In this document: positions 13,124 through 36,598 of the stretch, piece by piece
How the letters are laid out: every line of letters begins with the position of its first letter
Numbering within the stretch: the stretch's first letter is position 1
DNA from: Cirrosporium novae-zelandiae
Taxonomy: Eukaryota
NCBI GenBank assembly: GCA_026023565.1
Contig: JAPETS010000001.1
Span: forward strand, 1,674,001-1,738,000
DNA length: 64,000 nt
Reading direction: 5' to 3'
Translations under genes and position numbers: made by a program
The notes under the pieces: model-generated
Database searches by the model: none
What the model was told of the DNA's origin: nothing
The model's input: the letters and a program-made list of their open reading frames with translations, nothing else

Positions 13124-16100
13124 TCAACAAGAGAGTTCCTGGACAGCGTGTCTAATCTCCTCTCCTACCATATTAATAAACCCAACTATATCATCCTCAC
13201 TCTTGTTGGGTTGAGTCCACCGAATTCCAAAGTCAATCGCATCGGTTACTGGATTCAGAGCTACATCAACATACATCGCATGCGATGGCAAATACGATGT
13301 ATCAATTGCATCTACCGCTGTCCGTCCCAAAAGAGGCGACGATGCTGCGAAGTCGGTAGGTACACCCAAGTGCATTCGTTGCATAATGCTTCCTGGCTGA
13401 TCGCTGAGTCGCTGGTGGTGCCAGAGGAGGTTGATAAAAGTATCAAACAGCGGCCCTTCTGTGCGACCAGCCCAACCAAGGACATCGCGTAAATGACTTT
13501 GCTCATATGTTGTTCTTTGAGCTAGCTCCTCTCTGATTGAAACTGCTGTTTCATGGGGGGTTCGTGTCAAAGCATCATGTACAACCAATGGCGATACGTT
13601 CAGGCATGGGCCACTGAGGGTTTCAAGGTTTTCCCAAGCTTGTGAACGGCCAGCTTGGTACAATCCAAATGTCGTTCCGACCGTGCATGTGGCCCTTGCA
13701 AGGACTCGAGCAAAGGCAGCCAAACAAATGGTATGCAGAGATACCTCAGCGGTACGACACGTTGCTTCAAGAGCCGAAACGTTCTTGACTACCGTAGCTC
13801 GGCCAACAAAGGCTTGCTTAATCGTAGGGTTAGCGAGGACCTCCAGGTCAGCCATCATTATTGTTTCCTGTGCCTGTCTGAGAGTTTCTTTCCAATATTG
13901 CTGTTGCGCTTCGATAGAGACCGAGCGCACTACATTTTTGACAAATGGGGTGAAATGAGGATTAGATTTGCATTCCTCGCCCCTATACAATGAAGATAAG
14001 TCAGAAATGATAAGAGGCATGGTCCAGGCGTCATATAAGGCGTGGTGAAGTGTTAACAAAATTGCGTCACCATCGTCGCCCTGGAGGAAACATAATCGAA
14101 CTGGTGGCGCGAATAGATCGGAGGGATGTCTGGCTTCCTGGTGGAGTGCTTCGAGAACTCCTTCCTTGACTATAGAGACTTTGCGAGAGGTAAATGTGCG
14201 ATTATTGTCCAGAGATGATGGTTTCATGATGACCTGAACAGCATTTGTTGTGGAGGTAGCAGCAAATGTTGTACGAAGAATGGAATGTCGTCGTCGAAGC
14301 ACACCCCATGCTGCCCTCAGGCGGTCCACGTCTAGATGTTCAATAGTAGCGTAGACCCATGTTGGTTCGTAAAATATCCGACCAGACTTCATCCAGCTTT
14401 CCAAGTGATGCAATTGCCCACTCAAACACGGAATGACATCTTCGGTCTCTTCTTGTGATATTTGGAGGATAGAATATGCTTTGGATCGCATTTCTGGTGA
14501 AACAAGTTCGGCTGAGTTCTTCGTAGCAACATTGCGTTTACTTCCGTTGCTTAATAGTCGCTTGCAAATGCCTTCAACGTTCTTGCCTTGTAGTATATCC
14601 GAAACATTTGCCTTGATACCCGCTTTCCTACAGAGTGCCGCTACTCGTATCGTCGCAATAGAATCGACACCAATACTGTATATACTGGTCTGCAGTCCAA
14701 TTCGCTCAGGAGGAACTTGTGCTACCTCAGCAAGGATGTCTCGAACCCGCCGCTCGACTTGGGTGAAATCAGTACGGCCTGTTGCTGGAGAGTCCTCAAT
14801 TGTGGATATCATGGATTCCGTTGGTAATAAACGCAGTGTTTCGGGGAAAGCTAGTACAGATCGTGCAGGGTTGTCTAAGATATCACAGATAGCCGAATCT
14901 ACTCCTTGCAGGAGTTCTATAAGGCTAACTTGCTTCAGATACTCACCCCTGGATGATGCGCGGAGTATGACCGACTGAGGTTGCTCCTCTACCTCTAAAT
15001 TAATTGTGTGTTCTGCTTGCTGTGCTCCATTGTCTGCATCGAGAGGCTTCCAAAGGTCTTCCGAAGGTGACTGGATGTTAGATTCTGTTTTCTGATAAAC
15101 AAACAAGGAATCAAATAGAGGGATTGATGTGCCTCCATTGGCCTTCCGCCAGGCACTTTGTACATTTGGTAGAGAAACATTGTGGAAGATTTGTGACTCC
15201 GCAAGGAAACTTTGAACAGCAGCTACCGCATCGGAATTAGATAAAAGGGGCTGATCAAGTCGCAGTCGGAATGGGACAGTATTGAAAAGAGGACCGATAA
15301 TATTTTCCGCTCCTTCAAGGCGAAGGGAACGGCCGGCAACAACATGTCCAAAGATGATATCCCTCCGAGAAACCACTTTTGTAAGTATTTTTCCATAGGC
15401 CAAAAGCGCAATTGCTTGTAGAGTTACATTTAATTGTTTACATGCATTAGCAACTTTGTTTCGATTAAGATGTAAGGACTGTGTTGCAAAGAACATTTCT
15501 TCCGTTCTCTCATCGGTTGATAGACAAGGAATTGTAATCGGCTTATAATTGACAACATAGCGCTGCCAGAATTCTGCAGCTTGTGTTTGCCTTTGTGTTA
15601 TGACTCTTGCAGCATCACTAAATGGCCTTCGAACTGCCACATCTGTATTGGAATAAACCCGGGCTAGATCGTCGAAAAGATATGGCAATGAGACACCATC
15701 ATATAAACAATGATGCATTGTAATAATTAGGTATCGGCCAGAAGGTGAGACGATTGTACGGGCTTCTAGAGGAGGTATGTGGAAATCACTCTCGATAGCT
15801 GGCTTTTCGATCGTCGGTAGTATATCCTCTACAGACGACGAAACCTCTTGATTGCACCATTTAATATAAGGAAATTGATGCACTGCAGCAAACCAGCTGT
15901 TGCTTGCAGAATTGAAACAATGGAACGAGGTACGGAGAATTTCGTTGGACTGAATGGTACTAATCCATGCATCACGTAGTCGGTCGAGGTCAACATTGGC
16001 TTTCAGCTCTACTACATGGGAATGGACGTAGAGATCACCAGCTGAGGCAAGTGTTTGTGTGAGCATACCCGATTGCAGAGGAGTGCAGTGATATATTCCA

Positions 16101-19100
16101 GTAATTATGTCTTTCGTGGTTAACGTTGGAATATCCTTTGAATACTGTGAGAGTAAATTTTTGTCCGCAAGTAATGGCCGTGATGGTTTTTGCCCTTGGT
16201 TTAGGGACCTGCTTTTGACTCGTGCCCACAGTGCAGTAATACAAGGATAACGTATTACATCAGAAGATGAGATTGGTAACCCAGAATCGCGAAGGCGTTT
16301 CGCAAAGCGAATTGCGATTACAGAATCAATGCCTAGGCGATAGAAAGACGTGCTCTTGCCAATGTCTTTGAGTGAAACCTTACAGGTACTAGAAACAATT
16401 TCTCTCATTGTATTTTCTTCACTGGTCCAATTTTGCTCTTCCAAAAGCTCAGTGTTGGCTGTAGAAGAACCATCAACTTCAGCATTCACCAAACCCATAC
16501 TCTTCAAAGACAAAGTTTCACCTCGAGAGAAGCCTTCTAGCAACAGGTCAACTTGCTCGAGCAAAGAGTCGACATCAACAGTGTTGCGGAAAGTAGAAGT
16601 TGCCGCTGTACGAACAACTATTTTATCTGTTTGAGTTTTTGTTTCAAATTCGATGGCAAAAGGATAATCGGCAGGCATTGAACTTTCAACTTCAGTCCAA
16701 AGGGACTCATAAGTAGCACTTTCGTTAGCCTTGATATAGGAGAAGAGAATGTCAAATAATTGTTGATGGCCAACCCATCGTTGGATGAGACGTAACGGGG
16801 TATGTTGATGTTGTAGCAATTCTATGCTCGACTTATGGACATTTAATACAACATCTGAAAAGGTCTCCATTGCATCCTCAATTTGAATACGTTGGGGAAC
16901 AGTAGTAACGCATGGAGCTAGTATGGACTCAATATCATCGATGGGCAAGGTACGGCCGGAGAGCACTGAGCCAAAAATAACATCTTTTTGTTTAGCAATT
17001 TTAGCCAGAAGGACCCCAAAAACTGCTCTCGCTACAGAGGGCACTGTGGCTCCAATATGTGAAGCTGCTCTTTCGAGAGATGAAAGTTTAGCACCAAGCA
17101 AGCGCTCAGACGTAAAGGCTTTTTCCCTATCATTGGTGGATTGCTTCACAATAATAGTAGGCTTGCAATTCTTAAGATGAGTCTCCCAGAATTTCCTAGC
17201 TAATTGTGGATCCTGAGCAGCAAGATATTCAAGAAGATGAATGACAGGGGCTTGAAACGCAGGCTCAAGTTTTTTGTATAAACGGGAAAGCTCTTCCATA
17301 AGCATTGAGAAGCATTCTCCATCATATATTGAATGATGAAGAGATATTGATAGGAATGAATTTGCATCTGTCGAAACAGCTCTTGCAAGATGAAGTCTTA
17401 CAGGAGGTACTCTCTGGATACTCGCAACAATCTCTGAAGCAATCTGCTGTCTTGCTGCGCGTAAGCGATTTAATGTTGTATCATCATCAAAGGACAGCGA
17501 TTCATTCCAAGCTCCAGGAGACGCATCGGGAGCAAGGATTACTTGACACAGGTTATCATCGTCGGGTTGGTAGAAATATGTCCTAAGCATGCTGGTAAAA
17601 GCCGTTAGCGTGCTCCACGCGTTCTTGAAGAGATCTAAATCCACTTCTGAAGACAGCTTAAGAAGTACATGGTTCACATAGAGAGCCTGCCCTGGGTTGT
17701 TTATGGAGCTGGCGACTAGGGCTTCTTGCAGCGGAAGACAGGGCATGACAGCTTCGATAGAGGCCTCCGAAAGACCCATAGTCCGAGCCACTTGGGGAAG
17801 AAGGCAAGCTTGCATGTCACTTAGATGCTTCTGGGCCGATGCAAGTGCAATGGCATTTGTTTTATCCGTGGTTTTTTGCATCACCAAGAGTGCCAACTGC
17901 TCGATTATGGGATTGCTTAACACATCAGCAACGGAGATGCTGCAACCCAGTTTCCGAAGCCTAATAGAGAGACTTATAGCAGTCAAACTGTCTATTCCAA
18001 ATTGGAAGATACTAGATGTATGTTTCACAGAACAAGGATCGATTTTGATTGTGCTGACTAGAGCATCTCGAATCTTTTCTTCGGTTTCCGTCAATTCACG
18101 TTCTACTCGACCTTTAGTGTTGTTGGAATGCTCCTGACCAAGAAGCTCCGAAAGAGGTATAGAAGCAAAGAGTGCTTTGAGCTTCTTGGCATCCGCTTTC
18201 CCTGAAATGGGTGCCAGAGGTATAAAGGAGACTGGTATAATAACATCAGGTACCATATATGCTGGAAGTAGCTGACGGCAAGCTTCCTGAAGTTTGAGTG
18301 CTGTTTCGGCTCCGTCGGAGTTGAACCTGGGTTCTTGGTTTCGAGAAGATGGCCGATTTGCTGAATTAGATACAAATGAAATAAGCTGAGGTCTTGATAG
18401 GTCAGGATGTCGACTTATCAATGTTGCAGTGTCAACACCGTATTCAGCTGCAGCTTTGATTGTTTCTGAGACCTCCCCAAGTTCAAGGCGTTGACCTCTG
18501 ATTTTAGCTTGGTCATCGCCGCGTCCAAGGTATTCAATGGAGTCATCGGCCATCATTCTTACGATATCACCAGTGCGATACATCCTACAACCGTGGAAAT
18601 TTTCAATAAAAGCTCCAGAATTTGGGATTTTGTGGTAGCCGTTGGCTACAAGGCTTCCAGTGAGACAAAGCTCGCCAGGCTGCCCTCGTTTAGCAGGAAT
18701 AATGGTGCCAGGTAAAAGAACATATGCTGTTGTGTCTGCAAAAACCCATCCAATATTTCGCGTAGTACCCTTGGGGTCAATTTTCCGTACAGTGCACCCG
18801 ACAGTGACCTCTGTAGGTCCGTAAGCATTAAAGAGAGTGATATCTTCATCCGTAGCCCAAGTACTCAGGGTGTGTTCAGATAACTTTTCTCCCCCAACAG
18901 ATAAGAATTTAAGAGAAGGCACATCGGAAGGAGTCAGGTCAGCCTGGTCAAGGAGTGATGGCACGAAACTTGCATGAGTCACTCCTAGTTGCTTGATAGA
19001 GAGTCCAAGGTCATCCAACAGCATTGATCTAGCTCCCGTGACCGCTGTAAGTCCAAGGCGCCACGCTAGAAACATCTCAGAAACGTGAACATCAAATGCT

Positions 19101-22100
19101 CGGCTAGCAAGGCCAAGGTACTTGCCTAGGCCGGCTAGTTTTCGAGTGACGGGAGAGTTCTCGTGGATGATTCCACAGTAGGCTTCAATAAAGGTAGAAA
19201 GGTTGCCTCTTCCTACTAAAACGCCCTTTGGCTTTCCAGTTGAACCGGATGTATATAGTAAATACGAAGAGTCGCTAGGCTGCAGCCAGTCTCTGGATAT
19301 ATTTTCCGAAGCAAGACTTTGTAGCGCATCCAAGTAATCTGGATCATCAATGCAGACTAATTGGGTATTTTTAGGTATACTACCGAAAGTATTTGCAAGG
19401 TCGCGAGTAGTGAAAAGAATAGCAGTATCGCTATCCTCAACAAGCAAGTTCTTACGGTCTGGTGGAAGACTTTCCTCTATAGGAAGATATGTGTTGCCAG
19501 ACTTGAAGATCCCGACAATGGTGGCGTAAGCGTCAAGCGTACGACCAACGCACATAGCAACAACGGATCTTTTGATGCCAGCATTGTCAATGAAATTTGC
19601 AACTTGATTAGATATAGAGTTAAGGGTTGCGAAATCCCATCTCTCCGATTTTGCACCGTCCTCTGTGATAGTACTCGCCACTTCAGCAGCAATCCACTGC
19701 GGATGGTTTTGCGCATGATATTCTACCCAATAAGTGGGATCTTGATTGAACGCGGCCTTGGTAGAATCGTCTGGTATGGAACTTGAAATGGCTAGCAGAG
19801 ATTTGGGAAGTTGGTTTGCTAGCTCCAAGATTGGTTCGTCGGGTAATTGGACTATAGCGCTGATAAGTGCATCTATCTGGAGTGAAATAATCTTCAGGTG
19901 TGCGTTGTTCACAAGGCGATTGTCTGCAGATATGGACAGATCTAGACCGTTTTTGCTTGGGTACACATTCAAGGCTAATGGATGTTCAACTTGTAGCCCA
20001 ACAATATCTTCATATTCACTCCAAATGGCTTCGACTGCGGATTGTTCATCATTATGATCAGGATGTAACGTGAATGCAGCTGGATACAGGGGGTTTGATG
20101 CTGGCTTTTGCAGAATTCGTCTAATAAAGCCAGGCGAGACATGGCGATAGTCCAGTGCCTCATTCGAAAGTCTTGTAAGCTCTTGTATCACCCCTCTTGC
20201 TGTATCGCGTACTTGGACCGGTACAGGGGTTGTAGTGATAAGCGGTGCTACAGTATTCTCCAATGATGGATGTTGTAACCGATCCGATAGCACTTCGGTG
20301 AATACGACTGCAGGGCTTTCCAAGTAATCAGCAAGGATACAACCCCAGGCAACTTTAATAATCGTTCCAAATGAAGAAGCTCCTAACTGCTTAGCTGCCA
20401 TTTCGAGTTGATGGATAGATAAAGTTGACTCTATTCTGTGCGTGATGAATGCCTCCCTTGACTTTTTAGTAGTGGCTTTACCAGTTAGATCTGGCCAAGT
20501 GCTTGCATCAGGGTCTACAAAGTCTTTAAGCACTTGTGACCAAAACCTTTCAGTTTTGGTTTTGTGGTCTCCGTCTCGAGGTAAGGTTAGAGCCAAAGCC
20601 TGAGTGAGCTGCGATCGTTGTTTGGCCTCCTTCCCACCATATAAGGCTTGAACATCATCGAGAATGAATTGTAAAGAAGGTCCATCATGAATAGAATGGT
20701 GTAGGGTTAGCATCATAAATGATTCAGAACCATTAAAAAGGGTTATTTCCCAAGGAGGGCGAACAATATCACTTCTATGATGTAATGTTGCAATGTCTTC
20801 AGCGCGGGTTTTGACACGCCGTGAAAATTCGGAAGGTGTAACATCCTCAACTGTCCGCGGGAGTTGTGCTCCGTCAAATACGAGCTGCAAGAAAGCTGGA
20901 CGGCTTTCTTCAAATGTGCCATCTTCTACCAGCTCCGCCGTGGCAATGAATGCAGTTCTAAGCGCCTGCGTGGTTGATATGACATCAACCCAGGCTTTGC
21001 GTAACCGGTCTATATCCACGGTTTTTGGAAGGCGAAAGACATGGCTGCTCCAGTATGATGCAGGTGTTCGAGCAGTCTCACTTAGAATACCTTCCTGCAG
21101 AGAAGAACAAGGCAATACTGTAAATGCACCGTTCACTTTTAACGCCACTGACGCATGCCACTGACGGTCAAACTTTTGCAGTGTAGATTCTGCCGAACTA
21201 TGGATATTGGAAGTAACTGACTCGATTTCGCCCATCATAGAGGCCAGATGCCGGATTGTTCGACTTCGCATGACTTGGGATACGGAGAGATGATGACCGG
21301 CTTCATTTAACTTAGCTGTCAACCGAATGGAGCGGATTGAGTCGATGCCTAATGTCTGCAGACCAGCGGTTCTCTCTATTAGCTCTTGAGGAGTCTGCGT
21401 CAATTCATGAATGAGCTTGAGCAAAAGCTGTTCAGCTTTGCTCCATGTGGAAGTATCGTCCTGGAGACTTGTCGGATTAACTCGTTGCTCCCAGCTTGAA
21501 CAATCGACAGTTGAGTACACTGCAGCGAGGGCCTTTCGATCCTCTTTAGCAGATGGAGTCCGAGGAATGTGCTTGACCACAAGAAAAAACTGAGGAATCA
21601 TATAGTCTGGTAAAGACTGCTCAGCTGCTGCTAAACCCGCCCGTGAAATGTCCACAGCTTCATCACTGGTTATAAGTAAGGAATCATTTTCCTCATATAA
21701 TCTGGGTGAAGCAAGGAATGCGACGAGCACCTTTGTGGGACGGTCAGGGCGACTTAGGTGGAGAGTAGTTACTTGGTCCACGAATGGATGACATTTCTCT
21801 AGTGCGAAGCTGATTTCACTCAACTCAACACGAATACCCGCAAGTTTGATAAGGTCATCTTGACGACCGATGAACTCAAGACTACCGTCGTGTAACATGC
21901 GTACTGTGTCGCCCGTCAAATAAACACGCTGCTGAAGCTCTGGGCTGAAGACGAATCTAGCAGATGATTTTTCTGGATCGTTGAGATACCCTCTAGCCAC
22001 TTGATACCCTCCTAAGGCAAGCTCCCCCACTCCATTCTTCATGAGGACGTGGCCATCTTTCATACTGAAACATGAAACTGGGCTTAGGGGCCATCCAACG

Positions 22101-25100
22101 TTAGAGGGTTTGATATCGTCAGTCGTCCCATGGAATTGTCTCAATGTAGCAACAACAGTACTTTCTGCAGGACCGTATGTATTGAATGCTTGCATGTTTT
22201 GGGCCCAGTTATCAGCAACGTTATCGGGCAACTTTTCACCTATCATAGTGATAACTTCCAAGGTATGGCAAGCTTCACGAGGGACGACAGCACCATATGA
22301 TGGAGTTAAATGGGCATGAGTAGCCTTGGTGGTATTTGCAAGTTTGGCAAATGACCCAATCATGATCTCACGAGGCGAGGAAATAACAGTACCTCCAAGG
22401 CCCCATGTATAAAACAGGTCCTGGACAAATACATCAAAGGTGTAAGCAGAGAACTGCATGCAGCGAGGGGGGCCGTTGGACGAGGGCGGAATGGAATCCT
22501 GGAGAGCTTTCATACTATTTACGGCTGCTTGATGTTCTACTTGCACACCTTTCGGGGCACCAGTAGTTCCACTAGTCCAGATTAGATACGCGAGATGGTT
22601 AGGCCTTGCCACTGCTGTAATTTGCTCTAGCAGATGGGCATCTGCAAGTGGAGATGGATTGTTCAACACCTTTCCGACATCAACAGTTACCACATTTTGT
22701 GGAATGGCAGCGGGATCTTGTGTACTTGTGCTGCCTGCTAGAAGTAGTACCGAGGAACCAGTTCTCACGACAAGATCATGACGTCGCTGCGGAGGAGCTG
22801 CCGTGTCTATGGGACACCACCCGCCACCAGCTTTCAATATTGCAAGGAGAGCTACATATAATTCCGGGCTTCTCTCGATGCATATTGGGACTGCAGTATC
22901 TGTGAATGGACCAAAAGTCTTCACAAGATAGCTAGCAAGCAAGTCTGCCATTTCGTTTAGCTCATTGTATGTCAATTGTACATTTAATGGGCTTGCTTCA
23001 GACTGTAAATCGCCCTTGAATAACAGCGCGACGTCATTAGGTCGATCCTGAGCAAATGCTTCAAATTGAGCATGCAAGAAACCATATCTATTGTCACTAG
23101 GAATCAAAGATGAAGGGGAGGGATTAGCAATTGATTGAAGCTCTTGTCGGACGGCGGAACAGCCTGATGTGACGGAAAGTTCAGGATTTTCGAGCAGATG
23201 ATCAAGGACATCATCCAGCTGTTTAAGCATAAGGCGTGTAACTGGCTCAGACAAGTGGCTGTCCTTAAATGTAGCTTTAAGTCGTAGGGAATCATTAACA
23301 TCAGGCCAAACTTCGACCATTACCGGAAAGTCATTAGCCATGGGTGGATACTCGATAGAGTCCCATGTTTCAGAATGCTCGCGCCCTGAACCGAACAGTT
23401 GAAATGCCAAGAGGGTATCATAGGGAAGGCCGCCAGAATTTGTCATAAGAGAGCGGAGAGGTATTTGTACGTGGGGTAAACTCTCAATATTTTCAATTGT
23501 TAGAGCTTGTAAAAGTGATGCATTCGTGATTTCAGGAGAAATTTTTACCCGTACAGGGACGGTGGTGAATGTTGGACCCATACAGATCTCGGAATCATCA
23601 TCCAATCGACCAGACAATACGCTTCCGAAAGAAATTTCATTAGCTCCGGATTCTGAATATGTGGATAGGATTATAGCCCAAGATGCTTGTAGGGCTGAGA
23701 GTGGAGAACAACGAATAGAGGATGCTTTTGCCAAAAGATTCGAAAACGACATTTTAGACACTACATTGGCGGTGTCCACGAGTCCTTTGCTCCTTTTAGG
23801 GCGTAAGGCGGTTAGACATGGAAATGGTTCTGGTGAAAACTCTTTTAATTTTTCGGACCAGTACTTTTTACTGCTTTCGAGGTCTGCTGCGAAGTGCATG
23901 TCAACAGCTTTATTCAGCTGCATTCTTCTTGGTAGTTGTTGGTGATAATATTCCGCCAACACCTCTTCTATTAGAAGCTGCAGTGAGCCCCCATCAAAGA
24001 TTGCATGGAAGAGACTTAATACAACCGCAACTTGAGATGACGACTTGACCAGCGCGATTGACCAGGTTGGTCGCTCCAGATCAATTTCTTCTTCGGCTTT
24101 GAACAGAGCCTTTTGTACGGCGGTTGAAAAAGTATCGTTTGCCTCGTTGCAGGAAATATATCTCCAGTATCTCAAATTTTTCTTGACCAACTCACACGAA
24201 GGTGATAGTATACACTGGGCAAAGGGCGATAGTTCGTCATCGATTGGAACAAAGACAGTACGGAAGCAGTCATGACGGGCCAAAATAATATTGAAGCAGT
24301 GTTGCAAGTGGCCATAATCGACGGAGGAGGAGAGATGATAAACATTGTGGTTGATGTACGAATGGCTACGCAAAAAGCTACTCAGCATACCAGACTGTGT
24401 GGCGGTTGTAGGTAGAATCTTTTCGATATCTTGCGACACGAGGCCAAGGTGGTTGTAGCAGCGAGAGCTATTTCTGATTCCAAAATCTTTCAATAAAATC
24501 TGCCATGCCTTGCGGCTAGCTATTGGGCTCTCGATGCTCTGCACATATCTTTCGCCATTCTCATTCCGGCCCTTTTGACGTTCTTCAACAAGAGAAGCAA
24601 TTCCTTGAGCTGAACTGCCACGGAAAACATCGCCAATTGTAAGCTCGACAACGCCCTCTGATCTAGCAGTCTGAAGGAACTTCATCGCGCGAAGGCTGTC
24701 GATGCCAAGGCTCAGAATATTAGTAGAAGGCGCAATCTGATCTAACGTTTGGTTAATAGTCCGAGCCAAGAGTGAGCGAATGTGATCCAATAGGCCTATG
24801 CTTGTGGAATCTTGCGGATTAGGCGTTATCTGATCGGAGCTGGAATGTCCGTTTGTGAGCTTATGGCCGTTCATGACAGGATCATTGGAAATTTTGTCAG
24901 CGATGAGTTTGGAGATAGCTCTTCTGTCTAGCTTCCCGGAAGGTGACCGCGGCAAACTCGACATGAAAATATATCTCCATGGCCGCAAGTAGGGCAACAA
25001 TTGCTCTTCAGCGATCTTCTTGCAGGCACTCTCCGTATTTACTTCGTCTAGATCCTCAGGATCTGGTACAATGACTGCAATTAACTGTTCACTGCCTTGA

Positions 25101-27379
25101 GAAGCATCCTGAGGCCGATGAATGACCATTGCGACCTGGAGAACTCCTTTTGCAGAAGCAATGACAGCCTCCACCTCACCCAATTCGACCCTCCTTCCAC
25201 TGAGTTTGACTTGATCATTTGTGATTCGGCCCAAAAATTCTATCATTTCTTGGTTTTGCTCGTCCCATACAATCCGTGCTTTATCGCCTGTACGATACAA
25301 TCGTCCCCAAGCCTTGCTATTGACAAATGCCTGCTGTGTCTGCTTAGGGCGATTGCGGTAACCCAAAGCAACTTGTGGGCCGCCAATAGCTAATTCGCCG
25401 CTGAGGCCCTTAGCCATTGGAATGGGCTCATGTGATGAAGGGTCAATGATCAACAAAGAACAGGTTGAGAGAGCTGGGCCGATGACCGATCCCCTTGTAT
25501 GTATAGGAAAATTGCCATACAAAGTACAATTAATAGCACCTTCAGTAGGACCATAGGCATTTGCAAGGCCTCGAGGTCCATCCTCATCAGGGGTGTTTGA
25601 AGAGCCATTTAAAGATTTAGGATCTGTACCAAAGCCAGCAATCACCTTGGCGCTCAAACACTCACCCATAGTCCACAAACTTTTAAGGGTAGAGAGTCGC
25701 TCCGGTCTCAACAGTGATGCAACACTAGGGGTTGTCATCATCACGGTTGCGCGCAATTCTGTGACAGTCTCCTCTATATTTGATAATGTGATTTGTCGAT
25801 CAGCTGAGCAGAGGGTTCCTCCCGAACTTAACGTGACAAATATTTCCATAATGGATGGATCAAAAGTGGGTGCAGCAAATTGAAACCAGCGGCTTGGGTT
25901 TGTTGAGGAAGTTGAAAGAGGTAATGTTGTTGCATGTGCCATGATGGAACAAGACGCAGCCAAATGCGAGATTTCCACTCCTTTTGGCTTGCCTGTTGAA
26001 CCACTAGTATACATAACATAAGCCAGATTTGTCTCATGAGGTATGATATGATTACTATTCAGTGATATAACATCTTCAGGGACATCTTCTGATGCTAGAA
26101 GTTCTTCTATATCCAACCATAGAATGTCATCTTGACTCACGGATTCACAAGCACTTTCGGGCGTATGCCAAGGCAAAGGTGTCGGCTTTTTCCCCTTGCT
26201 CAAAACAATATTAGATTGTAGGTCCTCCAAAATGTCCCGGAGTCTTTGCGCCGGCGCATCAACAGGTAGAGGGCAAAATGCAAGGCCTGCTTTAAGAATT
26301 GCAAGGTATGATACATATAATTCTAGAGATGTAGTAAGAAAGACTGGAATGACCTTGGAAGCGGTCTGTTGTCGTTCACGGCCGATTAGGATTAAGCGTT
26401 TCGCGATTCTTGTAGTTGCCGCATCAAGCTCTGCGTAGGATAAAATCCTATGCTCATAGGATATCGCAGTAGATGCACCATCAGAGAATTGAAGGAAGTC
26501 CAAAGCGGGGCGATCTGGATACTTTACAACACCCCGTTCAAATTCAGCATGTAGTAGAGCAGGCGAGGCATCCGAACCATTCGAACACCGATCCACATCT
26601 AATGATTGATTTTGCGATAGATGTGGTGGTCTTGTCACTGGAGGGAAATTCAGAATGGAGAGTTCGGTTCCGGGATTATTATGTTCTTTTCTTATTTCCG
26701 TCAACTCCGATCTTTTGGATACAGGGTGGGTCTGCAGATAGTATGCAATTGCTCTAAGAAGATGCGGTACTGCTGGCTCTGGTAGCAGCTTCGAATCGTA
26801 GGAAAGACGGAATATCAAATCTGTCGTCACTTCGGACGGGCTAACAATGAGTAGAAAGGGCTGTGATTTGCGGTTGAATATTAGTTAGGATTCACATTTA
26901 CGTTTCAGATCAGGAAATTATCTTGAGCTTACTGCTTGAGGGAAATTATTTGGTCTCCTGCTATTAAATTCAGGACATTTGAGAGAGATTTCAATAGCAA
27001 AATCCAGTACCACTTCCGCAGTCTGTGTTTCGTCCGAAGCTTCTATCAATTCCAACTTTTTTTCTGTTCCTATGGAATCTTCTTGCAGCTGCGCAAAAAG
27101 TGTTCCCACATGCGACTGTCCTTGCTCATGGAGAATAGAGAAGCCAAAGGCTACTTCACTCTGGCCAATAAAGTCAATTATGAAGCGCGTGAAGCGCTCT
27201 AGGACCTGTTCCGGTAATAACAAAGGAACGCGCACATCTACTTCAGAGCTACCCACACTCCGAATGGAGCTCGGTAGAGAAGCATGAAATGCCGATAGAC
27301 CGTAAGTATGAAGTGGAGGGAGTCGAGTTGATGGCAATAAAAGTGATCGCGCAGGATCAGGCGCTGAAGAGAACAACAT
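13124..27379 (-). CDS. sidC: Ferrichrome-family siderophore NRPS, SidC/NPS1 type (~4,727 aa; A-T-C-A-T-C-A-T-C-T-C-T-C)
   Basis: Exon 1 is 27379-26933, an intron spans 26932-26861 (GTAAGC...CTAAC...CAG), and exon 2 is 26860-13124. Three A domains (YTSGSTGKPKG, WTSGTTGAPKG, YTSGSTGKPKG), five T domains (LGIDSL, LGIDSI, FGIDSL, LGIDSV, IGVDSI) and five C domains (FHAIFDG, HHSIHDG, HHSIYDG, HHCLYDG, HHALYDA). No TE domain. Confidence 0.93.
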
Positions 27380-27965
27380 GGTGAGAATTACAGAGATTGA
27401 GAAGTTCTAAGTGAACGAAGAGAGGAGAATTGTGTTTGTTTTCGTAGGAAAAGTACCGCAAGGGACGCAGTACCATAAGCTCCAGGTACAGACTTAGAGA
27501 TGATCATCAGAAGCATGCAACATTAGGTATGAGAAACAAGGGTCGAATAGAATTAAAGGCGGCAACGTGCTATGACATCGGAGGTCCAAAGATTTGGATA
27601 TCATCCCGAACGGAGGGGGGTAGAAGATAAAAAAAATATTCGTCAACGTCTAGGGCCAAAAAGACCCACTCAAGCCCGAACCGCGGAAGGATGGAAAAGG
27701 TTTGGTCGACAAATAAGGTACCATGTAACATAATGTAACAGAACGTATCATAACAATACCATCAATACCATTGATCTTCCTTCTAGCTCTAATTGCTGCC
27801 CAGAGATGTAAAAGTCGAAAGAGAAAAAATAAATGAAAACGCAAGTACTCCCTGCTCATCTCTTTAGGACTTTGATTTTTTATAACAAACCTACGGCTTA
27901 ATTCTTTCAGGAATCGGGCATATTCACTCAACTCAATCATATCTTCACACCACTCAACTTTTATC

Positions 27966-28919
27966 ATGTCATCTTCTCCGTCTTCTTCCTCGATCGATGG
28001 CCGTTCTGCAGATGAGATCTCTGCTGCTTCATCTATCGATGAGACTTTGGTTGAGAACTACAGCAGGATCCTGCTTATCACAGGGGCCGGTCAACCCAAT
28101 GGGATTGGACAGGCTGTGGCGCGAGAGGCAGTCCTGAAGCATAAATATGCTGTGGTACTCGGTGCACATTCCCGATCCTCACCAAAACAGCTAGATCAGT
28201 TTGTCGCAGAGCTGAATAAGGCTGCAATCTCTTCAGCCTCTGCATCAGATACTTCCTCGCCGATATCTGTAGCCAAATGGAGCAAATGTGATGTGACCGA
28301 TTGGAAGAGCCTCCAAGCCTTCTTTTCATTCGCGGCAGCCGAGTTTGGAGGTGTCGATGCTGTATTTTGCAATGCAGGTATTGCGGCACCATATAGAAAG
28401 GCAACTTTCAAACAGGAACATTCACCAGACTATCCCACCTTGGATGTGAATTTGACTGGAGCATTGCTTACAATAGAGGCTGCTCTAGCCTTCTTCACAG
28501 ACCATCCACGCCCAAATCAAGTCATTGTCCCGACAACCTCCATGTGCGGCTTCAACCCCAACCCAGCAAATCCTGTATACTGTGCGAGCAAAGCGGCACT
28601 TATCGGGGCAACAATATCTTTTGCCCGTAGACTGGAGTTGTCTGGGAAACCTGTCCGGCTGGCAGCGATAGCACCATATTACCTACGGACAAATTTGTGT
28701 CCGCAAGCTTTTGTTGATCGCATTGGCGAAAACAACCTTGTTCCAATGGAAGCTGTAGTTGGCGTGGTTCTTGACCTGATCTCTCCGGAATCACGGAAAC
28801 ATGGCGTTATTGTGAAAGTCGAACCCATTCAAGTAGAATCGGACAATCAAAATAGCGACAATCAACATCAGGTACTTATTGAGGACTGGATCCCAACGCC
28901 TGTGGATTTTGTGAGTTGA
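27966..28919 (+). CDS. Classical short-chain dehydrogenase/reductase (15-hydroxyprostaglandin dehydrogenase-like), intronless
   Basis: TGAGQPNGIG Rossmann motif, CDVT, NAG, Ser in TTSMCG, and YCASK (YxxxK). Confidence 0.88.
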   Translation: MSSSPSSSSIDGRSADEISAASSIDETLVENYSRILLITGAGQPNGIGQAVAREAVLKHKYAVVLGAHSRSSPKQLDQFVAELNKAAISSASASDTSSPISVAKWSKCDVTDWKSLQAFFSFAAAEFGGVDAVFCNAGIAAPYRKATFKQEHSPDYPTLDVNLTGALLTIEAALAFFTDHPRPNQVIVPTTSMCGFNPNPANPVYCASKAALIGATISFARRLELSGKPVRLAAIAPYYLRTNLCPQAFVDRIGENNLVPMEAVVGVVLDLISPESRKHGVIVKVEPIQVESDNQNSDNQHQVLIEDWIPTPVDFVS

Positions 28920-29470
28920 CCTCATCTCTTTGGCACTTCATACATGACCTCGCTACTCCTTATTCAAGTACAAAGCTAACGATTTCCAATTTAACATGAT
29001 TAGTATGGGATACCAATGTAAGCGATGTACTTTACACGGCAACTGTAGAGCAAAAGTGGGATGATTGGGATGGTTCCAATGAAAATGTGGAGGAAAGAAA
29101 TGTCACAGGTGGTATTTGTTAAAAGGATTTTAGATCAAAGGGGCAGAAGCGAATTTAGGAAGTTGGAAGGATTAAAGTTTAGGGTGGGGGGGGGAATACA
29201 TAAGCCGGCGGCCCTTTGTTTGGGTTCCATCACCGTGCCAAAAGTCAATGCAAAACATTTTCCGTTGTTGGTAAAGATATGCTTTAGATAAGAAGGATAT
29301 TCTAGATATAAAGCAAAAAGCAAGATCCAACTTCACAAAGATCATCTATCTACATGTGCTTCTATATAAATTTAACTCTTGGTATTGTTTGCGACGGGGG
29401 TTGGCCTACGTCATCTTAATACAAATAGCAGCCAACAACTCCATTTTATTGAGATTATTCTCAAGGTACT

Positions 29471-30861
29471 CTATATTGTGGTAGGTTCATCCCCCCAGTG
29501 GAATGGACATAGTCTAAAGAAGTTCTCACGCGAACACAAGACAAGAGCAGCTCGTTTATGCGGGAAGTCGATAGTCTTGTCAATGTGAAAGCCATGGTCA
29601 ACCTCATAAGCTATGATCTTTTTTCCTGAAGCTCGAGGCTCGCCAACCAAACGATCTGTCCGCGGGTCATCCAACAGCATATAGTGCATGACTGCCGACA
29701 TCCATGCTCGTACACGGTGCGGTCCACGGAACCGATCTTCTCCCACCAAAGCATGCCAGCCACGATCGTATTCACCAGCATCGAAATATGCGCCGACTGT
29801 ATCTTCCTATATTTTAAACGTAGATGCAATCAGCCACTGCCATCTGATAGTGAAATTGAATTGGAGGGTCCTGAATTTACCATAGCCCAATACACTTCAA
29901 AATAGGCAAAGAAATTATCGTCGAATCGTCCGAGCAAGGAGATTAGATGCCTGTCCTCATGTGACTTGCGTAAATACTCGCGATGTTCCTCCAGAGTACC
30001 AGTTTCATTCCACGCGGCTGCCACACGGGGGTCGTTTTGCCATTTGTTAAATAACTTTACATGCTCATCGTTTTTCCAATCCAATGCCACAAGTGACAAG
30101 TGCTCTCCCAAGTGTGGAATATAGCGGGTATAGACAACTTCACCTGGTGTGGGTTTTGATGGTCGAATAGGATGACGTGCAAAAACTCGGGCTTCAGGAA
30201 ATCTGGACGTGAATATATAATCGAGAGGTCTCACGGGGTAAGATGATGCGGAACGCTGAAGGCCTTGTCCACTAGCATCAGGTGCCCAGGGAGCTCGAGT
30301 TCCAAAAGGTGAGCCTGCTCCTTGCCAGAAAGAACATCTAGTAACCAGTAGTTCATCGTCGACAGCAATAGACGCCGGGATGTTTTTGTTTCCATCCCCA
30401 AGGGATGGCAGAGGAGTTTCAATGGCCAACCCGACTAGTAGTAGCTGTGTGCGTATTTGGGCACTTTCTGGTCCATCTAGAATCAATCGAAAGCTTTCTT
30501 GCCCTGGGCGGATGGTGAACAACGCGTATATAGTCAGCCAAGCCTGTTCAACCGACGGCACTCCGCCCTCGCTCCAGGAAAATTTGGTCAAAGGAGACCT
30601 TCTGGCACGCGCCCAAGGTGTATTGTCATCAGCGGGTGGTGCGCCATCCTCAATGCTGACAGGCTCGGAGAAGGCCAGCGACTGGTGATGTAAAACCGGT
30701 GTTGAAAACGTTTGTTCTTTGTCAACCGGCTCTAATCGGAAGGTCTGCTGTTCGTCCTGTTTTGCCTGCAGGAGCAGTTTATTGATGCGATACGCCGACA
30801 GCCAAGGATGCGGTAGACGCAAGATTGAATAATCTATCTTGTTCTGTGTAGTAGAACCCAT
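29471..30861 (-). CDS. N5-hydroxyornithine acyltransferase, IucB/AlcB GNAT family (SidF/SidL-like), 2 exons
   Basis: Motifs NTPWARARRSP, FWQGAGSPFG, HPIRPSKP, YTRYIPHL, WQNDPRVAAAWNETG, YFEVYWAM | EDTVG...DRGWHALVGE, LLDDPRT and DFPHKRAAL. Intron 29880-29807. Confidence 0.9.
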
Positions 30862-31177
30862 TATGGACTTAATTATGTCTTCTCTTCTGCGGGTTTCTCT
30901 TTGCGACTGCGATTCAAGGACTCAATTGATGCGGAAAGCAAAAACGCAAGAGATGATGATGCATTGTGGAAGTAATTAATTAGCAAAGTACACCTTATGC
31001 CAACTGGGAAATAAGTGCGTGGCCAAAAAAAGTACAGGACAGCGGAACAAGGGCCAAGAAGCACCACAAAAGACGCCATTGATGTCTTCAATACTCAGCA
31101 CGGTATCCACATATCAATTGTAACTAGGAGCTTGAGTACTGAAAATTTTTGCTTGTACTGTGCATAGGCTGAATGGG

Positions 31178-31818
31178 ATCAGATTAGATTGATCATTCAT
31201 CATTGCCTCATCATGAACGTCGGCCACCTTGACTAATAACTTTTAGGTCCGAAGCCAATGAATCACACTTGGGGGATATTAAGTCATACTACCCGGGCAT
31301 CTTTTCGTGGAGAAAGACCACTTTGGACCTGCCAAGCAGTCTGGTCAAAGTCTCGACCACACAAGGTAGAAATGTGGTTGAAACAATTTAAGACTTATTG
31401 CCGATTATCGGAGAAAATCTGATTAGATATGGTAACGGGTTTCAATTATCTGATCGCCTTATCCCTGGATGGGTTAGGAGGTGGCCGGAGGATTCGTATG
31501 ATGTGGGTAGATAAAGCAGCGGGTGGGGTGTTTCTTCAGTAGTGAGGGCCCATGCAGTCCAAGTAAAGTTATCAGATGGACCTAACAAAGTCTTAAACCG
31601 TCTTGTATTCCGGTGACTAAATTAATCTTACTACTGAGGACACGGTATCCGAGGTTGGCTTTCTGTCACAACCCAACATATTTGTCCCTTGATCAATTTA
31701 TGGTTGTCATACTTATGGTCCGTGGTCCATGTGATGAGAAATTTTCAATAGATTCAACAGACATGAACCATGATGCTTGAACTTCTTTTGGTTCCATGCA
31801 GATTAGATGATCAGATTA
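31178..31818. promoter_or_regulatory. Cluster of SreA-type GATA boxes in the divergent acyltransferase/ABC promoter
   Basis: Perfect TTATCTGAT (31446-31454) and TTATCAGAT (31569-31577), both ATCWGATAA on the minus strand. One-mismatch ATCWGATTA at 31178, 31417 and 31810. Confidence 0.7.
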
Positions 31819-32364
31819 GATGAATCGGACAAGCTGTTGAAGAAAATTAATAGCAACGACTCCACCTTAGGTCCTTGATGAAACGGTATGACGATGCACC
31901 AAAGCACCAATACGCCATTGACCTCCCATCTTTCGTACATTCCGTATCGTACTGTTTTGCCATGTTTTGTCATGGTATTGCTCTATGCTATGTGTCTGGT
32001 TATGAAAATTTCTCATCGCTTGTTTGGCTATTTCGATCTGCATCCCAAACTTCCGGCTGTTCCCTACTTCTTCCACGATCAATTGTTCAGTCTATTTTGC
32101 AATGCCAGATACGATGCCACCACGTTTGGACTGTCAGAGTGGATATTTGCTTGAGGAAGGCATTGGGCCCCCTGCTCATCATCATCCTCCACTATCCTCC
32201 TTCTTAGCGCTAATGGCTTTTATGGCCAATTGGTTTCACCGCCGGCATTCCGCTGGCATTGAAACATCTTAGAAGCGTAAAAGTTGTTTCTTCAAATCGT
32301 CATATCTGAAGGCTATGAAGGCTGTAGACGTTCTGGAGACCTTTTTGGAGCATAACGAGCGAAC

Positions 32365-35300
32365 ATGAGCCAGACTGAATCCTCTGAAGCTGAGGAGAGA
32401 AATCGTCCAAATAGCAAGTGGAGGAAATATGTGAGTTGGTCTTTGCATATACAATAGAATTGATTATGTTCTGCTTCTCGTCACGCGTATGGGATACTAA
32501 TGAATTCGACCTTGACAGTTTCCCTTCCAAGCCAAATTACGGAATCCACATTCTCTTGAGAAGAGCTCCGGATTCTTTCGTTTACTGTTTCGAACTGGTC
32601 CAAATGCCACCGACATTCTGCTGATAGTTGTGGGCACCATATCAGCAATAGCCTCTGGCATTCCATTTCCCCTCCTTGGCATACTCTTCGGTCAACTTTT
32701 GGATGATGTCAATTCAGCAAGCTGTAGCTCAGATACCGATCTGTCTGGATTTGAAAATGGTGTTCGTACAAAAGTTCTATATGTGATATACGTTGGAATT
32801 GCCAATTTTGGTTTCATATATATCTATACCAGTTGTTGGAGTTTGGCTGGAGAAAGACTTATACGGCGTCTGCGACTACGTTACTTTCAAGCTCTCCTGC
32901 GTCAAGAAATTGCTTTTACAGAGAGTCTTCCTCAAGGAGAGGTATCTTCCCGTTTGACTGCAGACCTCGAGACCATTCAAACTGGCACGTCGGAAAAGGT
33001 TGGAATATGTCTCGCTAGCGTATCTTATTTTGTTGCTGCATATATTGTCTCTTTCATAAAGGCGGCTAGGCTTGCCGGAATTCTTATATCACTTGTTCCG
33101 GCATTCCTGCTCATGGCGCTGATCGGAGGTAAATTCATCGAAAGATACGCAGCTCGAACAACAGATCATATAGCTGCCGCAACGTCAATTGCCTCGGAAA
33201 GTCTGGTTAACATGAAGATTGTACACGCATTCGGAGCAAAATCTCGGCTAGAAACTCTCTATGCCCAACGTCTATCTCAAGGGCTTCGGGACGCGCTCAA
33301 AAAGGCGTTTGCAAGTGCTGCTCAACTTGGAACAATGTTCTTCATTGGCTATTCTGCCAATGCCCTGGCTTTCTGGGAAGGGAGCAGAATGATTGCGGAG
33401 AATGTTGGCGGCAACTCTAGTAATCCCTCTGTTGGGTCGATCTACACGGTTATATTCCTTCTAGTTGATGGTGAGTTTACAATCATTTATCATACCCGTG
33501 TTCTAGAGGATAGGACATACAACACAAGAATTTTGTAAATGGATACTTGTTGACACTTTGCAGCTTCATTTATAATTAGTCAAATTGCACCGCTTTTACA
33601 TATATTCGGCTCTGCGGCTGGCTCGGCTGACAAATTGCTCGACACGATCGGTCGACAATCAGCTATTGACGGAACAACATCAGACCAGGGTCGGACAGTC
33701 AATAACATCTCGGGTGACTTTGAGTTTCAGGATGTCGTCTTCTCGTACCCATCTCGGCCAGATACTGAAGTACTCCATGCCATAAACTTGCGGATTCCAG
33801 CTGGCAAGCACACGGCAATTGTTGGCTTGTCTGGGAGTGGAAAATCTACAATCGCAGCCCTTGTGGAAAGACTGTATGATGTTAGCGGAGGCAAGATCTT
33901 AGTTGACGGTAATGACATCCGGGAGCTCAACGTCCGCCAGCTGCGGTCTTATATGGGTTTTGTGCAAGAGCAGCCAACTCTACTAGACCGGTCAATTCTA
34001 GAGAATATAGCTCACGGTTTAATCAATTCGCCTAGAGAGAGCCATGCACACTTGAAACCAGTTTTGATGAATTCTAGCCTTGAAGATGTCGCCAAAGCGA
34101 TTAGAAACGGTGTCGACGCTTCAACCGCGTTCGCTAAAGCCGGAAGTGCCGTCCAAGAGGTCTGGAAATTAGTCAGACAAGCCGCAACCATGACCAATGC
34201 CGTGGATTTCATTGATAATCTTCCCCACGGCTTTGCAACCACCGTTGGCTCCTCAGGATGCTATCTTAGTGGGGGTCAGAAGCAGAGAATTGCCATTGCA
34301 CGTGCTCTTGTCCGGGAGCCAAACATTCTCATTCTAGATGAAGCTACTGCAGCCCTGGATGCCACAAGCGAAAGACTGATTCAAGGAGCATTAGATCAAG
34401 CAGCTGAAGGACGGACAACTTTATCAATTGCACATCGTCTTGCTACCATAAAAAATGCCCACAACATTATTGTCTTTGAACGCGGCCATGTCGTTGAGCA
34501 GGGAACTCACACTGAACTTCTGGCAAAGGATGGAGCATATGCAAGAATGGTTCACCTTCAATCGCTTGCTCGTCGAGATAGCTCCGCATCTTCTAGCACA
34601 ACCCCCGCTCATAGTGGGGAGGACTCGACTATTTCTTCTAAGGACCTAGTATCTCCAGCAGACTCCGCCGATTTCGAAAAGAATACAGAAGGTGGATCTC
34701 CTAAACCAAAAATTAAAGAGATCCCTTCATCCGAGCAGGGTCTAGCTACAGATGATGACAAGCAGTCTAAATCCTTCTTTTCTACTTTCTGTGTTATCAC
34801 ACGTCCCCAATTAGCGTTGATCTTCCTGGGTCTTGCGGCTTCAACTATCACCGGAGGGGCTTATGCTGGCGAGTCTGTCATCTTCGGTCACACCGTTGGT
34901 GCTCTCAGTACCTGTCGGGCCGAGTCCCAGATCAGGAGCAGCGGGAATCTCTATGGACTTTTGTTCTTTATGCTTGCTATCATCGAGCTGATTGCATACA
35001 TGGTCAACGGTACAGCATTTGGGTGGGCTTCCGAAAAGATCCTTTATCGAGTTCGCGTTAAATCTTTACACTCGTTATTACACCAAGACATCCAATGGCA
35101 TGAGTCTGAAGATCGGACTCCGTCGACTCTACTCAACTATTTGAGCACGGATGCCAATGCTCTCGCCAGTCTGACTGGTGTAATACTCGGGACAATCTTC
35201 TCAATCTTAGTCAATCTCGTTACTGCTCTTATCCTCGCTCATGCAATCGCATGGAAAATTGCTGTTGTTCTATTAGCGACAATGCCGGTGGTTCTAATAG

Positions 35301-36598
35301 CTGGATTTCTACGGTTGCGCGTTTTGGCCCAGTTCAAGGAACGACATCAGAAAGCATTTGCACAATCTGTCAGCATCACGATGGAAGCCATGAAAGCTAA
35401 CAAAACCATTGCAACCCTCTCTTTGGAGCAAGAAACTTTCCAGGTGTATCGTCGATCATTGCAAGGTCCATTTGAGGCTGTCTTGAAAGGGGTGGCTTAT
35501 GCGAATTTCTGGCTCGCAAGTGCTTTTAGTATCACTTTTTTCGTTTACGCTCTGGCTTATTGGTGGGGGGCAAAACAGGTTGCTTCCGGGTTATATTCGT
35601 CAACTCAATTCTTCATTGTGCTACCTCTACTCTTAGGTAGCACTCAGACCTGTGGGCAGATGTTTTCTCTCGCACCAGATGCTGCAAAAGCCAAGGTTTC
35701 TGCCCTAAACGTAGCGGGGTTGTTGGATATTGGCCCCAAAGACTATGAGGATCATTCAAATAACACAAGCGATCCGACAAATAGGGTAGATGATACTGAT
35801 ATTGAAAAGACCGCGGATGCTCAACCTTTAGCAACCACCGATGAAGGAGTAAGCATCTCAATCCGCGATGTTGAGTTTTCATATCCAGCCAGACCAGAAG
35901 CGCAGGTTTTGCGGGGCCTGAGCATGGATATTCTCCCCGGCCAATTCTGTGCCCTCGTGGGACCAAGCGGGTCAGGGAAATCGACCATCATCGCGCTTCT
36001 CGAGCAATTTTACCCCATCAGCGCTGGCTCCATCACCATCGACGGCCTTGACATCTCTCGAAGCGATGGTGAAATTCTCCGTCGAGAAATGGCTCTTGTT
36101 CCACAAGACTGCGTCCTCTTCGAAGAAACAATCCGCTTCAACGTTGCCCTTGGCGCCAACCCTCGCCACCAAGTCACCGATACCGAAATCGAAGAAGCAT
36201 GCAGACAAGCAAACATCCACGACACCATCGCATCTCTGCCAGATGGCTACAACACCAAATGCGGACCCAACGGCTCCCAGTTCTCCGGTGGCCAAAGACA
36301 GCGCTTAGCGATCGCACGTGCTCTCATCCGCAAACCAAGGCTTCTGCTGCTCGATGAGCCCACGAGCGCCTTGGACGCCGATTCGGAGCGATTGCTACAG
36401 GTCACCTTGGATAAACTCATCGCTTCGAAGAATGTCACTGTTGTTACAATCGCGCATCGACTTCACACGATCCGCAATGCAGACGTTATATTCATGATCG
36501 AGCAAGGTCGGTGCGTTGACCGTGGTACCCACGCCGAACTTATCGAACGAAGTGAAAGCTATCGACAGAATTCGCAACACCAGGCACTAGGGGACTAA
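32365..36598 (+). CDS. Full-size ABCB/MDR1-type ABC exporter (TMD-NBD-TMD-NBD), SitT-like
   Basis: ATG at 32365, introns at about 32431-32518 and 33470-33563. Walker A GLSGSGKS and GPSGSGKS, signatures LSGGQKQR and FSGGQRQR, Walker B ILILDEAT and LLLLDEPT. Confidence 0.92.

Follow-up and report, generated by a model that had tools for sequence, protein, structure and literature searches.

A short-chain dehydrogenase/reductase gene inside a ferrichrome-type siderophore cluster of Cirrosporium novae-zelandiae: a candidate accessory enzyme of hydroxamate acyl chemistry

We analysed a 64,000-nucleotide stretch of Cirrosporium novae-zelandiae DNA (assembly GCA_026023565.1, contig JAPETS010000001.1, forward-strand positions 1,674,001 to 1,738,000; hereafter "the window", in whose own coordinates all positions are given), which holds a ferrichrome-type siderophore cluster with a gene for a short-chain dehydrogenase/reductase (SDR) inside it. 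Our preferred reading, held tentatively and a little short of an even chance, is that this SDR may serve a lineage-specific cluster as an accessory, NADP(H)-dependent redox enzyme that acts on the hydroxamate acyl unit. We prefer it because the SDR is intact with an invariant catalytic tetrad, has siderophore genes on either side of it, and shows a distribution parallel to that of the cluster's hydroxyornithine transacylase. Fungal ferrichromes vary mainly in their hydroxamate acyl groups, and to our knowledge few enzymes that supply those groups have been described.

The SDR gene stands head-to-head with a type-II ferrichrome synthetase, which is a non-ribosomal peptide synthetase (NRPS), and tail-to-tail with the transacylase. 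Its parts, and the spacer in front of it, are as follows:

27380-27965 (no strand): NRPS/SDR spacer, measured from start codon to start codon, 586 bp, presumed shared promoter
27966-28910 (+ strand): SDR main exon, encoding a classical short-chain dehydrogenase/reductase, 315 codons, defined by its open reading frame (ORF), Pfam, catalytic residues and an AlphaFold2 (AF2) model
28911-29003 (+ strand): probable SDR 3' intron, 93 nt, with a GTGAGT donor at 28911, CTAAC at 28976 and an AG acceptor at 29002-29003
29004-29021 (+ strand): probable SDR terminal mini-exon, five codons and a stop, from the splice-site scan, encoding residues YGIPM

In the ORF listing, the gene appears as a 317-aa ATG-to-stop frame at 27966-28919 (+). 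A first-pass annotation, whose region of interest (27380-28919) was the spacer plus this ORF, had called the gene intronless. It probably is not, since a script scan for donor, branch and acceptor sites finds the splice signals listed above, and the annotated homologue from Arachnomyces ends in ...GIPE, which parallels the spliced SDR end YGIPM in the alignment. The stop codon of the unspliced ORF lies inside the GTGAGT donor at 28911, and the spliced coding sequence is 963 nt long, in frame and free of internal stops. The gene therefore probably has a single 3'-terminal intron of 93 nt. Two overlapping antisense ORFs gave no family match in the Pfam scan, and the GC content and third-position GC content (GC3) of the SDR gene are similar to those of neighbouring genes. 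Judged from sequence, the SDR gene is real and looks functional.

The encoded protein belongs to the SDR family, scoring 96.4 bits against Pfam adh_short (cut-off 26.6, E 2e-27) and 81.7 bits against adh_short_C2 (cut-off 27). Classical SDRs are recognised by an Asn-Ser-Tyr-Lys tetrad (which includes YxxxK), an NAG motif and an N-terminal TGxxxGxG dinucleotide-binding motif. When the window protein is aligned with four close relatives and three distant SDRs (eight sequences), N136-A137-G138 (the NAG motif), Asn162, Ser192, Tyr205, Lys209 and the residues of the glycine-rich loop are invariant, and Ser192, Tyr205 and Lys209 stay unchanged across 18 sequences. The earlier statement that all catalytic motifs are present thus holds for the tetrad and the NAG motif, but the glycine-rich motif is atypical: the loop reads TGAGQPNGIG (28080-28109, residues 39-48) and is two residues longer than in the distant SDRs. 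All five members of the SDR clade keep this insertion, which is modelled with a predicted local distance difference test (pLDDT) score >90.

The AF2 model, built from the 18-sequence alignment, has a mean pLDDT of 86.5, a predicted template modelling score (pTM) of 0.84 and a Rossmann-type strand/helix pattern. Its low-confidence parts are the first 33 residues, which are disordered and serine-rich, and two short inserts; a Ser/Thr-rich insert lies at about residues 88-102. The atypical loop and the disordered N-terminus are the features one might expect of a decayed gene, non-functional and no longer used. We consider decay very improbable, as the frame is open, every catalytic residue is in place, the loop insertion is shared by the whole clade, identity across lineages is 67-70%, and GC and GC3 are like those of the neighbours.

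The two flanking genes that make this a siderophore locus are:

13124-27379 (- strand): type-II ferrichrome synthetase (SidC/NPS1 lineage), with exon 1 at 26933-27379, an intron at 26861-26932 and exon 2 at 13124-26860
29471-30861 (- strand): SidF-type N5-hydroxyornithine transacylase, 438 aa, with exons at 29881-30861 and 29471-29806 and an intron at 29807-29880

The NRPS start codon is at 27379 (-), as fixed by a deposited 4727-aa protein, P0392 ("MAG: NRPS [Cirrosporium novae-zelandiae]"), whose first 149 residues are exon 1 and which is 99% identical over the 700 NRPS residues queried. Together with the ORF and the Pfam matches, this start codon bears out the first-pass description of an intact SDR between the NRPS and the acyltransferase, head-to-head with the former, and the divergent spacer of about 590 bp described there measures 586 bp. 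Pfam finds three adenylation (A), five thiolation (T) and five condensation (C) domains in the NRPS, and 12 consecutive pieces give their order as A-T-C-A-T-C-A-T-C-T-C-T-C, i.e., (A-T-C)3(T-C)2, the arrangement of a ferrichrome synthetase. Its first 700 residues are 43-50% identical to Aspergillus SidC. This architecture is type II, which in different fungi yields ferricrocin, ferrirhodin, malonichrome or ferrichrome A (available text of PMC6737921), so the product is not readable from it.

For the transacylase, Pfam Acetyltransf_8 (the SidF/SidL family) matches both exons, as befits a siderophore cluster. Over chain residues 20-338, which include the N-terminal domain, exon 1 aligns with the Aspergillus fumigatus SidF structure sequence 7qf6 (E 1.7e-92). 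According to the available text of PMC11751504, SidF and SidL are 31.6% identical at 56% coverage, with the similarity confined to the C-terminal half. We rejected a SidL-type identity, as the SidF match spans the N-terminal domain. By analogy with SidF, the type of the transacylase alone leaves its acyl group unfixed. The protein ends in -TTI, with no tripeptide resembling the consensus of peroxisomal targeting signal type 1 (PTS1), whereas a canonical SidF-clade member from Aspergillus lentulus ends in -AKL.

A search with transacylase exon 1 returned 848 proteins at E <= 0.001 among 4111 candidates. The best five are 56-61% identical to it, and named fungal proteins come next at 44-51% (among the best 120 of the 848). 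In pairwise alignments, the five relatives are 77-85% identical to each other, 57-65% to the window protein and 46-55% to other fungi (Coccidioides, Ophidiomyces, Rasamsonia and Aspergillus proteins). We computed a maximum-likelihood tree by a quick search without bootstrap and rooted it at its midpoint; its 43 rows are the window protein, the five relatives and 37 named matches, with 78 listed matches left out. In this tree the window protein and its five relatives form one clade (Shimodaira-Hasegawa-like approximate likelihood-ratio test, SH-aLRT, 99) whose stem measures 0.52 substitutions per site. This clade is separate both from the canonical SidF clade and from a clade of Onygenales "AceI", Rasamsonia and second-Aspergillus-copy proteins.

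The SDR has a similarly narrow set of relatives. A word-indexed search scored 8000 candidates, of which 566 proteins reached E <= 0.001, many of the distant matches being bacterial. Four close relatives (P0002-P0005) have BLASTP identities of 64-66%; they include a hypothetical protein from Arachnomyces sp. PD_36, a member of the Onygenales. The first match after these four has E 1.8e-15 and 33% identity, and those that follow among the matches listed are at about 33-38%. In pairwise alignments, the four relatives are 83-88% identical to each other and 67-70% to the window protein, a level of conservation that fits selective maintenance. The SDR clade thus comprises Cirrosporium (Xylobotryomycetes) and a closely knit group with Arachnomyces sp. 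PD_36 (Eurotiomycetes, Onygenales) among its members, and among the matches listed it was not seen in other Onygenales or Eurotiomycetes.

The SDR and the divergent transacylase clade therefore have parallel, narrow distributions. For the SDR relative P0002 and the transacylase relative P0127, the longest contig is listed with the same length, 31,380 bp, which suggests that the two share a contig and that SDR and transacylase were inherited together. Such parallelism is the pattern expected of a co-inherited functional pair, and it would also arise from simple conservation of gene order in a few related genomes. The main alternative, a real possibility though one we place below even chance, is that the SDR is a bystander which serves unrelated metabolism, its co-occurrence with the transacylase being ordinary gene-order conservation among related genomes. 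SDRs form a very large family, among the largest of enzymes, so one SDR beside any gene is unremarkable and chance placement is plausible. What exceeds chance here is the position of the SDR inside the cluster, between cluster genes and across a short divergent spacer from the core synthetase, combined with a narrow range of organisms that it shares with a distinct transacylase clade. The relatives are 57-70% identical, at which distance mere retention of a neighbourhood is less automatic.

Transacylase and synthetase are also close neighbours in Rasamsonia byssochlamydoides, where transacylase P0128 (tag ending 9556) and a SidC-like NRPS, P0474 (tag ending 9558), lie one gene apart on one 504,458-bp contig, an arrangement of three genes like that of the window. 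The gene in between is probably not an SDR orthologue, as no Rasamsonia SDR is among the matches listed.

If the SDR does act on the acyl unit, it could do so in either of two ways. It might prepare an unusual acyl-CoA donor, e.g., by reducing a 3-oxoacyl-CoA or by interconverting a side-chain alcohol and carbonyl, which the divergent transacylase would then load onto N5-hydroxyornithine. Alternatively, it might alter the acyl side chain once assembly is complete. In both cases the product would be a ferrichrome variant with acyl groups other than acetyl or anhydromevalonyl. The cofactor preference of the SDR, its co-regulation with the NRPS, its substrate and any effect on the product are matters of inference.

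The cofactor preference follows from the end of strand beta2, where the aligned SDR clade has His-Ser-Arg, with no acidic residue, and the distant SDRs have Asp. In SDRs, a missing acidic residue at this point usually favours NADP(H), so the enzyme is probably NADP(H)-dependent, and a reductive role would hence be favoured. The C-terminus has no PTS1-like tripeptide, which does not place the protein in a compartment.

A Foldseek search with the AF2 model returned at least 500 Protein Data Bank (PDB) matches at E <= 0.001, and all matches listed are SDRs. The top ones are human 15-hydroxyprostaglandin dehydrogenase (15-PGDH), glucose dehydrogenase, FabG and hydroxyacyl-CoA dehydrogenases (E about 1e-16 to 1e-17, template modelling score by query 0.59-0.66, identity 22-26%). 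By sequence, the PDB neighbours (best E 8.9e-14) include FabG-type 3-oxoacyl reductases, 3-hydroxyacyl-CoA dehydrogenases, 15-hydroxyprostaglandin dehydrogenase and several natural-product ketoreductases. We counted the presence of 3-oxoacyl-thioester reductases, 3-hydroxyacyl-CoA dehydrogenases and ketoreductases among these neighbours in favour of an acyl-unit role. The window SDR shares the fold and catalytic tetrad of the 15-hydroxyprostaglandin dehydrogenase, FabG and 3-hydroxyacyl-CoA dehydrogenase SDRs but differs from them in its low identity (22-26%), its loop insertion, its disordered N-terminus, its Ser/Thr-rich insert and its scores below the NCBIfam cut-offs shown.

A system that encodes its own enzyme for a non-acetyl acyl-CoA donor is the ferrichrome A cluster of Ustilago maydis, with the NRPS Fer3, the enoyl-CoA hydratase Fer4 and the acylase Fer5. 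Its donor enzyme is a crotonase-family hydratase, whereas the candidate in the window is an SDR. The ferricrocin/fusarinine pathway of A. fumigatus (SidA, SidL or SidF, SidC) shares its NRPS architecture with the window, at the 43-50% identity to SidC given above, and the window transacylase matches A. fumigatus SidF across both domains. The two differ in that the A. fumigatus pathway has no SDR and the window cluster has one, and in that the window has no SidA, SidH or SidI family gene among 105 scanned ORFs (stop-to-stop, 74 of at least 90 aa and the other 31 mostly of at least 130 aa). Moreover, the window transacylase falls in a separate, long-stemmed clade relative to canonical SidF and lacks the -AKL of the A. 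lentulus member.

That the textbook ferrichrome-type pathway requires no SDR, as the first-pass annotation had said, agrees with the available text of PMC11751504 and PMC13462969. Its description of the SDR as unexpected is overstated, as oxidoreductase or SDR genes have already been noted in siderophore clusters of Histoplasma, Trichoderma and Sclerotinia. In Histoplasma, OXR1 is an oxidoreductase in an iron-regulated siderophore cluster and is induced by iron limitation (available text of PMC2275787); later work still gives it as a cluster member (PMC11380514, PMC3852720 and PMC13251436, each in its available text). Like the SDR here, OXR1 is described in these texts as an uncharacterised oxidoreductase in a hydroxamate cluster beside an NRPS and an ABC (ATP-binding cassette) transporter, and we counted its iron induction as a precedent for a cluster role. 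Unlike the SidC-type cluster here, the OXR1 cluster is built round a SidD-type (extracellular fusarinine/coprogen) synthetase in the same texts, so the likeness is one of description, and no Histoplasma protein is among the 119 listed SDR relatives.

The Trichoderma ferricrocin cluster has an "oxidoreductase" and an aldehyde dehydrogenase beside its NRPS, with no function given in the available text, and in T. virens an uncharacterised SDR flanks a SidD-type NRPS (PMC6131884). These oxidoreductases, again likened by description, are at best analogous to the window SDR and not orthologous, and no Trichoderma SDR is among the 119 listed relatives. In Sclerotinia, an oxidoreductase of the NRPS2 cluster rises with the NRPS during infection (available text of PMC6941272). 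The available texts on Histoplasma, Trichoderma and Sclerotinia assign these oxidoreductases no function. Our literature search, with supplements outside it, found no role assigned to any SDR in a ferrichrome or ferricrocin cluster and nothing on Cirrosporium siderophores.

Two transporter genes and a second divergent spacer complete the cluster:

30862-32515 (no strand): divergent transacylase/ABC spacer, with exact ATCWGATAA at 31446-31454 and 31569-31577; its right boundary, the ABC start codon, is approximate
32516-36598 (+ strand): full-size ABC transporter, divergent from the transacylase, with two ABC_membrane and two ABC_tran Pfam regions over two ORFs
10370-12127 (- strand): major facilitator superfamily (MFS) transporter adjoining the NRPS 3' end, with Pfam MFS_1 on three ORF pieces and an exact ATCTGATAA upstream, at 12810-12818

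With two transporters present, one might also suppose that the SDR acts on the siderophore after uptake or on the iron-free ligand, e.g., in a redox step aiding iron release or recycling. We think this improbable. It would suit the fact that fungal enzymes of ferrichrome iron release are poorly defined, but the hydride that classical SDRs transfer goes to carbon centres, and they lack a flavin or metal site with which to reduce Fe(III). No similarity to a known siderophore reductase was found in the PDB, NCBIfam and Foldseek matches listed. A point in favour of this use is that extracellular-siderophore clusters often hold esterases and transporters (available text of PMC11380514).

Iron regulation offers a further angle on whether the SDR belongs to the cluster. 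The consensus of the Histoplasma iron repressor at siderophore genes is (G/A)ATC(T/A)GATAA (available text of PMC2275787), and we applied its core, ATCWGATAA, to the Cirrosporium DNA. The 64 kb contain five exact copies where 1.8 are expected, and five or more occurred in 2 of 100 shuffles. Two are in the transacylase/ABC spacer, one is upstream of the MFS gene, one is inside the NRPS and one is at 5994, so three of the five (12810, 31446, 31569) lie in cluster spacers. The transacylase/ABC spacer, with its two exact and four one-mismatch copies, is the densest group in the window. The NRPS/SDR spacer has a plain HGATAR at 27625 and another overlapping the SDR start at 27961, and no CCAAT box was found in it.

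Against an acyl-unit role, and in several cases for a bystander, stand the following observations. The first concern regulation: ATCWGATAA is absent from the NRPS/SDR spacer, even with one mismatch allowed, and the cluster spacers have no more k-mers in common than shuffled sequences can produce (15 common 9-mers, where shuffles average 8.9 and reach 22). A spacer common to the NRPS and the SDR that has no iron-GATA motif is what one would expect if the SDR were a bystander. However, because the NRPS shares this same motif-free spacer, there is no strong sign against iron regulation of the SDR, and from the sequence no positive sign of it either. Cluster genes that are not regulated are also known, e.g., Histoplasma RTA1, whose expression was not detectable (available text of PMC2275787), and an SDR that is not co-regulated would fit the bystander.

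The second set concerns distribution. Only 4 of the 119 non-self matches in the word-indexed search (its best 120 of 566 proteins) exceed 38% identity to the SDR. When 1.84 billion representatives were searched exhaustively with HMMER, 8275 proteins reached E <= 0.001 and the query alone reached E <= 1e-30; the next-best match is an 822-aa protein with E 1.4e-29 and three matched stretches, and from there on E values are 1e-18 or weaker. By these sequence searches, the SDR is lineage-restricted and no general companion of SidC-type synthetases. The first-pass annotation had proposed asking whether SDR orthologues stay beside such NRPSs in other genomes; because most fungi with such clusters are without this SDR, they generally do not, and among the matches listed no relative above about 38% identity lies beyond the four close sequences. 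This absence of an SDR orthologue from SidC clusters elsewhere, like the completeness of the known ferrichrome pathway without an SDR, is readily understood if the SDR is a bystander. The evidence for a shared contig also has its limit, as it consists of two equal figures of 31,380 bp and not of DNA that was seen.

The third set concerns chemistry. The PDB and Foldseek neighbours of the SDR are generic, at 22-26% identity, and among its 25 best of 148 NCBIfam matches the SDR reaches no cut-off. Its highest scores, 86 and 83.9 bits, compare with cut-offs of 215 and 222, respectively, the families tested being FabG-type 3-oxoacyl reductase, glucose 1-dehydrogenase and other named bacterial SDR equivalogs. 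The many bacterial matches might hint at horizontal transfer of the SDR from bacteria, but its ESM Atlas neighbours are generic SDR clusters, both ascomycete and bacterial. With the Pfam, NCBIfam, PDB, ESM Atlas and Foldseek neighbours all generic, the function of the SDR cannot be read from its sequence or fold.

The neighbouring genes do not supply the missing chemistry. No ornithine N5-monooxygenase, mevalonyl-CoA ligase (stand-alone acyl-CoA ligase) or enoyl-CoA hydratase family was found in the 105 scanned window ORFs outside the NRPS, and because the donor-making and ornithine-oxygenase genes are absent from the window, the acyl chemistry is not readable from context. The same scan leaves the cluster in the window without the first committed enzyme of hydroxamate synthesis; the monooxygenase may be encoded elsewhere in the genome, by analogy with Aspergillus, where its gene is so located (available text of PMC4784894). 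Nor need a divergent transacylase mean a new donor, because SidF takes acetyl-CoA as well as anhydromevalonyl-CoA (available text of PMC11751504).

The idea of an acyl-unit enzyme can be pushed further, to a donor-tailoring module made up of the SDR and the divergent SidF-type transacylase, confined to Cirrosporium and a small Arachnomyces-like group, that would load an undescribed acyl group (e.g., 3-hydroxyacyl or oxidised anhydromevalonyl-type) to give a new extracellular ferrichrome-family siderophore. We regard this module as rather unlikely. Were it to exist, its patchy spread over two ascomycete classes, Xylobotryomycetes and Eurotiomycetes, would reflect cluster transfer or an ancient cluster lost elsewhere.

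If the SDR works with the divergent transacylase, the locus would represent a new route to acyl-unit diversity and would predict an undescribed siderophore in a little-studied lineage. It would also provide a first functional handle on the uncharacterised oxidoreductase genes that recur in siderophore clusters of fungi, human pathogens such as Histoplasma among them. Should the SDR be a bystander, what remains is an ordinary SidC/SidF-type cluster. On present evidence it is not a new kind of system, as had been suggested for it, and we see in it a lead worth following up for the natural-product chemistry of an obscure lineage.

Other genes were seen on both sides of the cluster. An Old Yellow Enzyme-family gene (42282-43593, + strand; Oxidored_FMN, E 1e-73) is found some 6 kb past the ABC transporter, and its GC3 is 0.64 versus 0.39-0.47 in the cluster genes. 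On the left, 2649-5840 (+ strand) holds a hydantoinase/oxoprolinase-like region followed by S-Me-THD N- and C-terminal domains, which looks like one multi-exon gene or two adjacent genes, and an exact ATCTGATAA lies just downstream of it, at 5994. On the right are genes for a GFA-family protein (45664-46011), a class I methyltransferase (52096-52953), a Zn2Cys6 transcription factor (54937-57226) and a class IV aminotransferase (63301-63999), the last of which runs off the window end.

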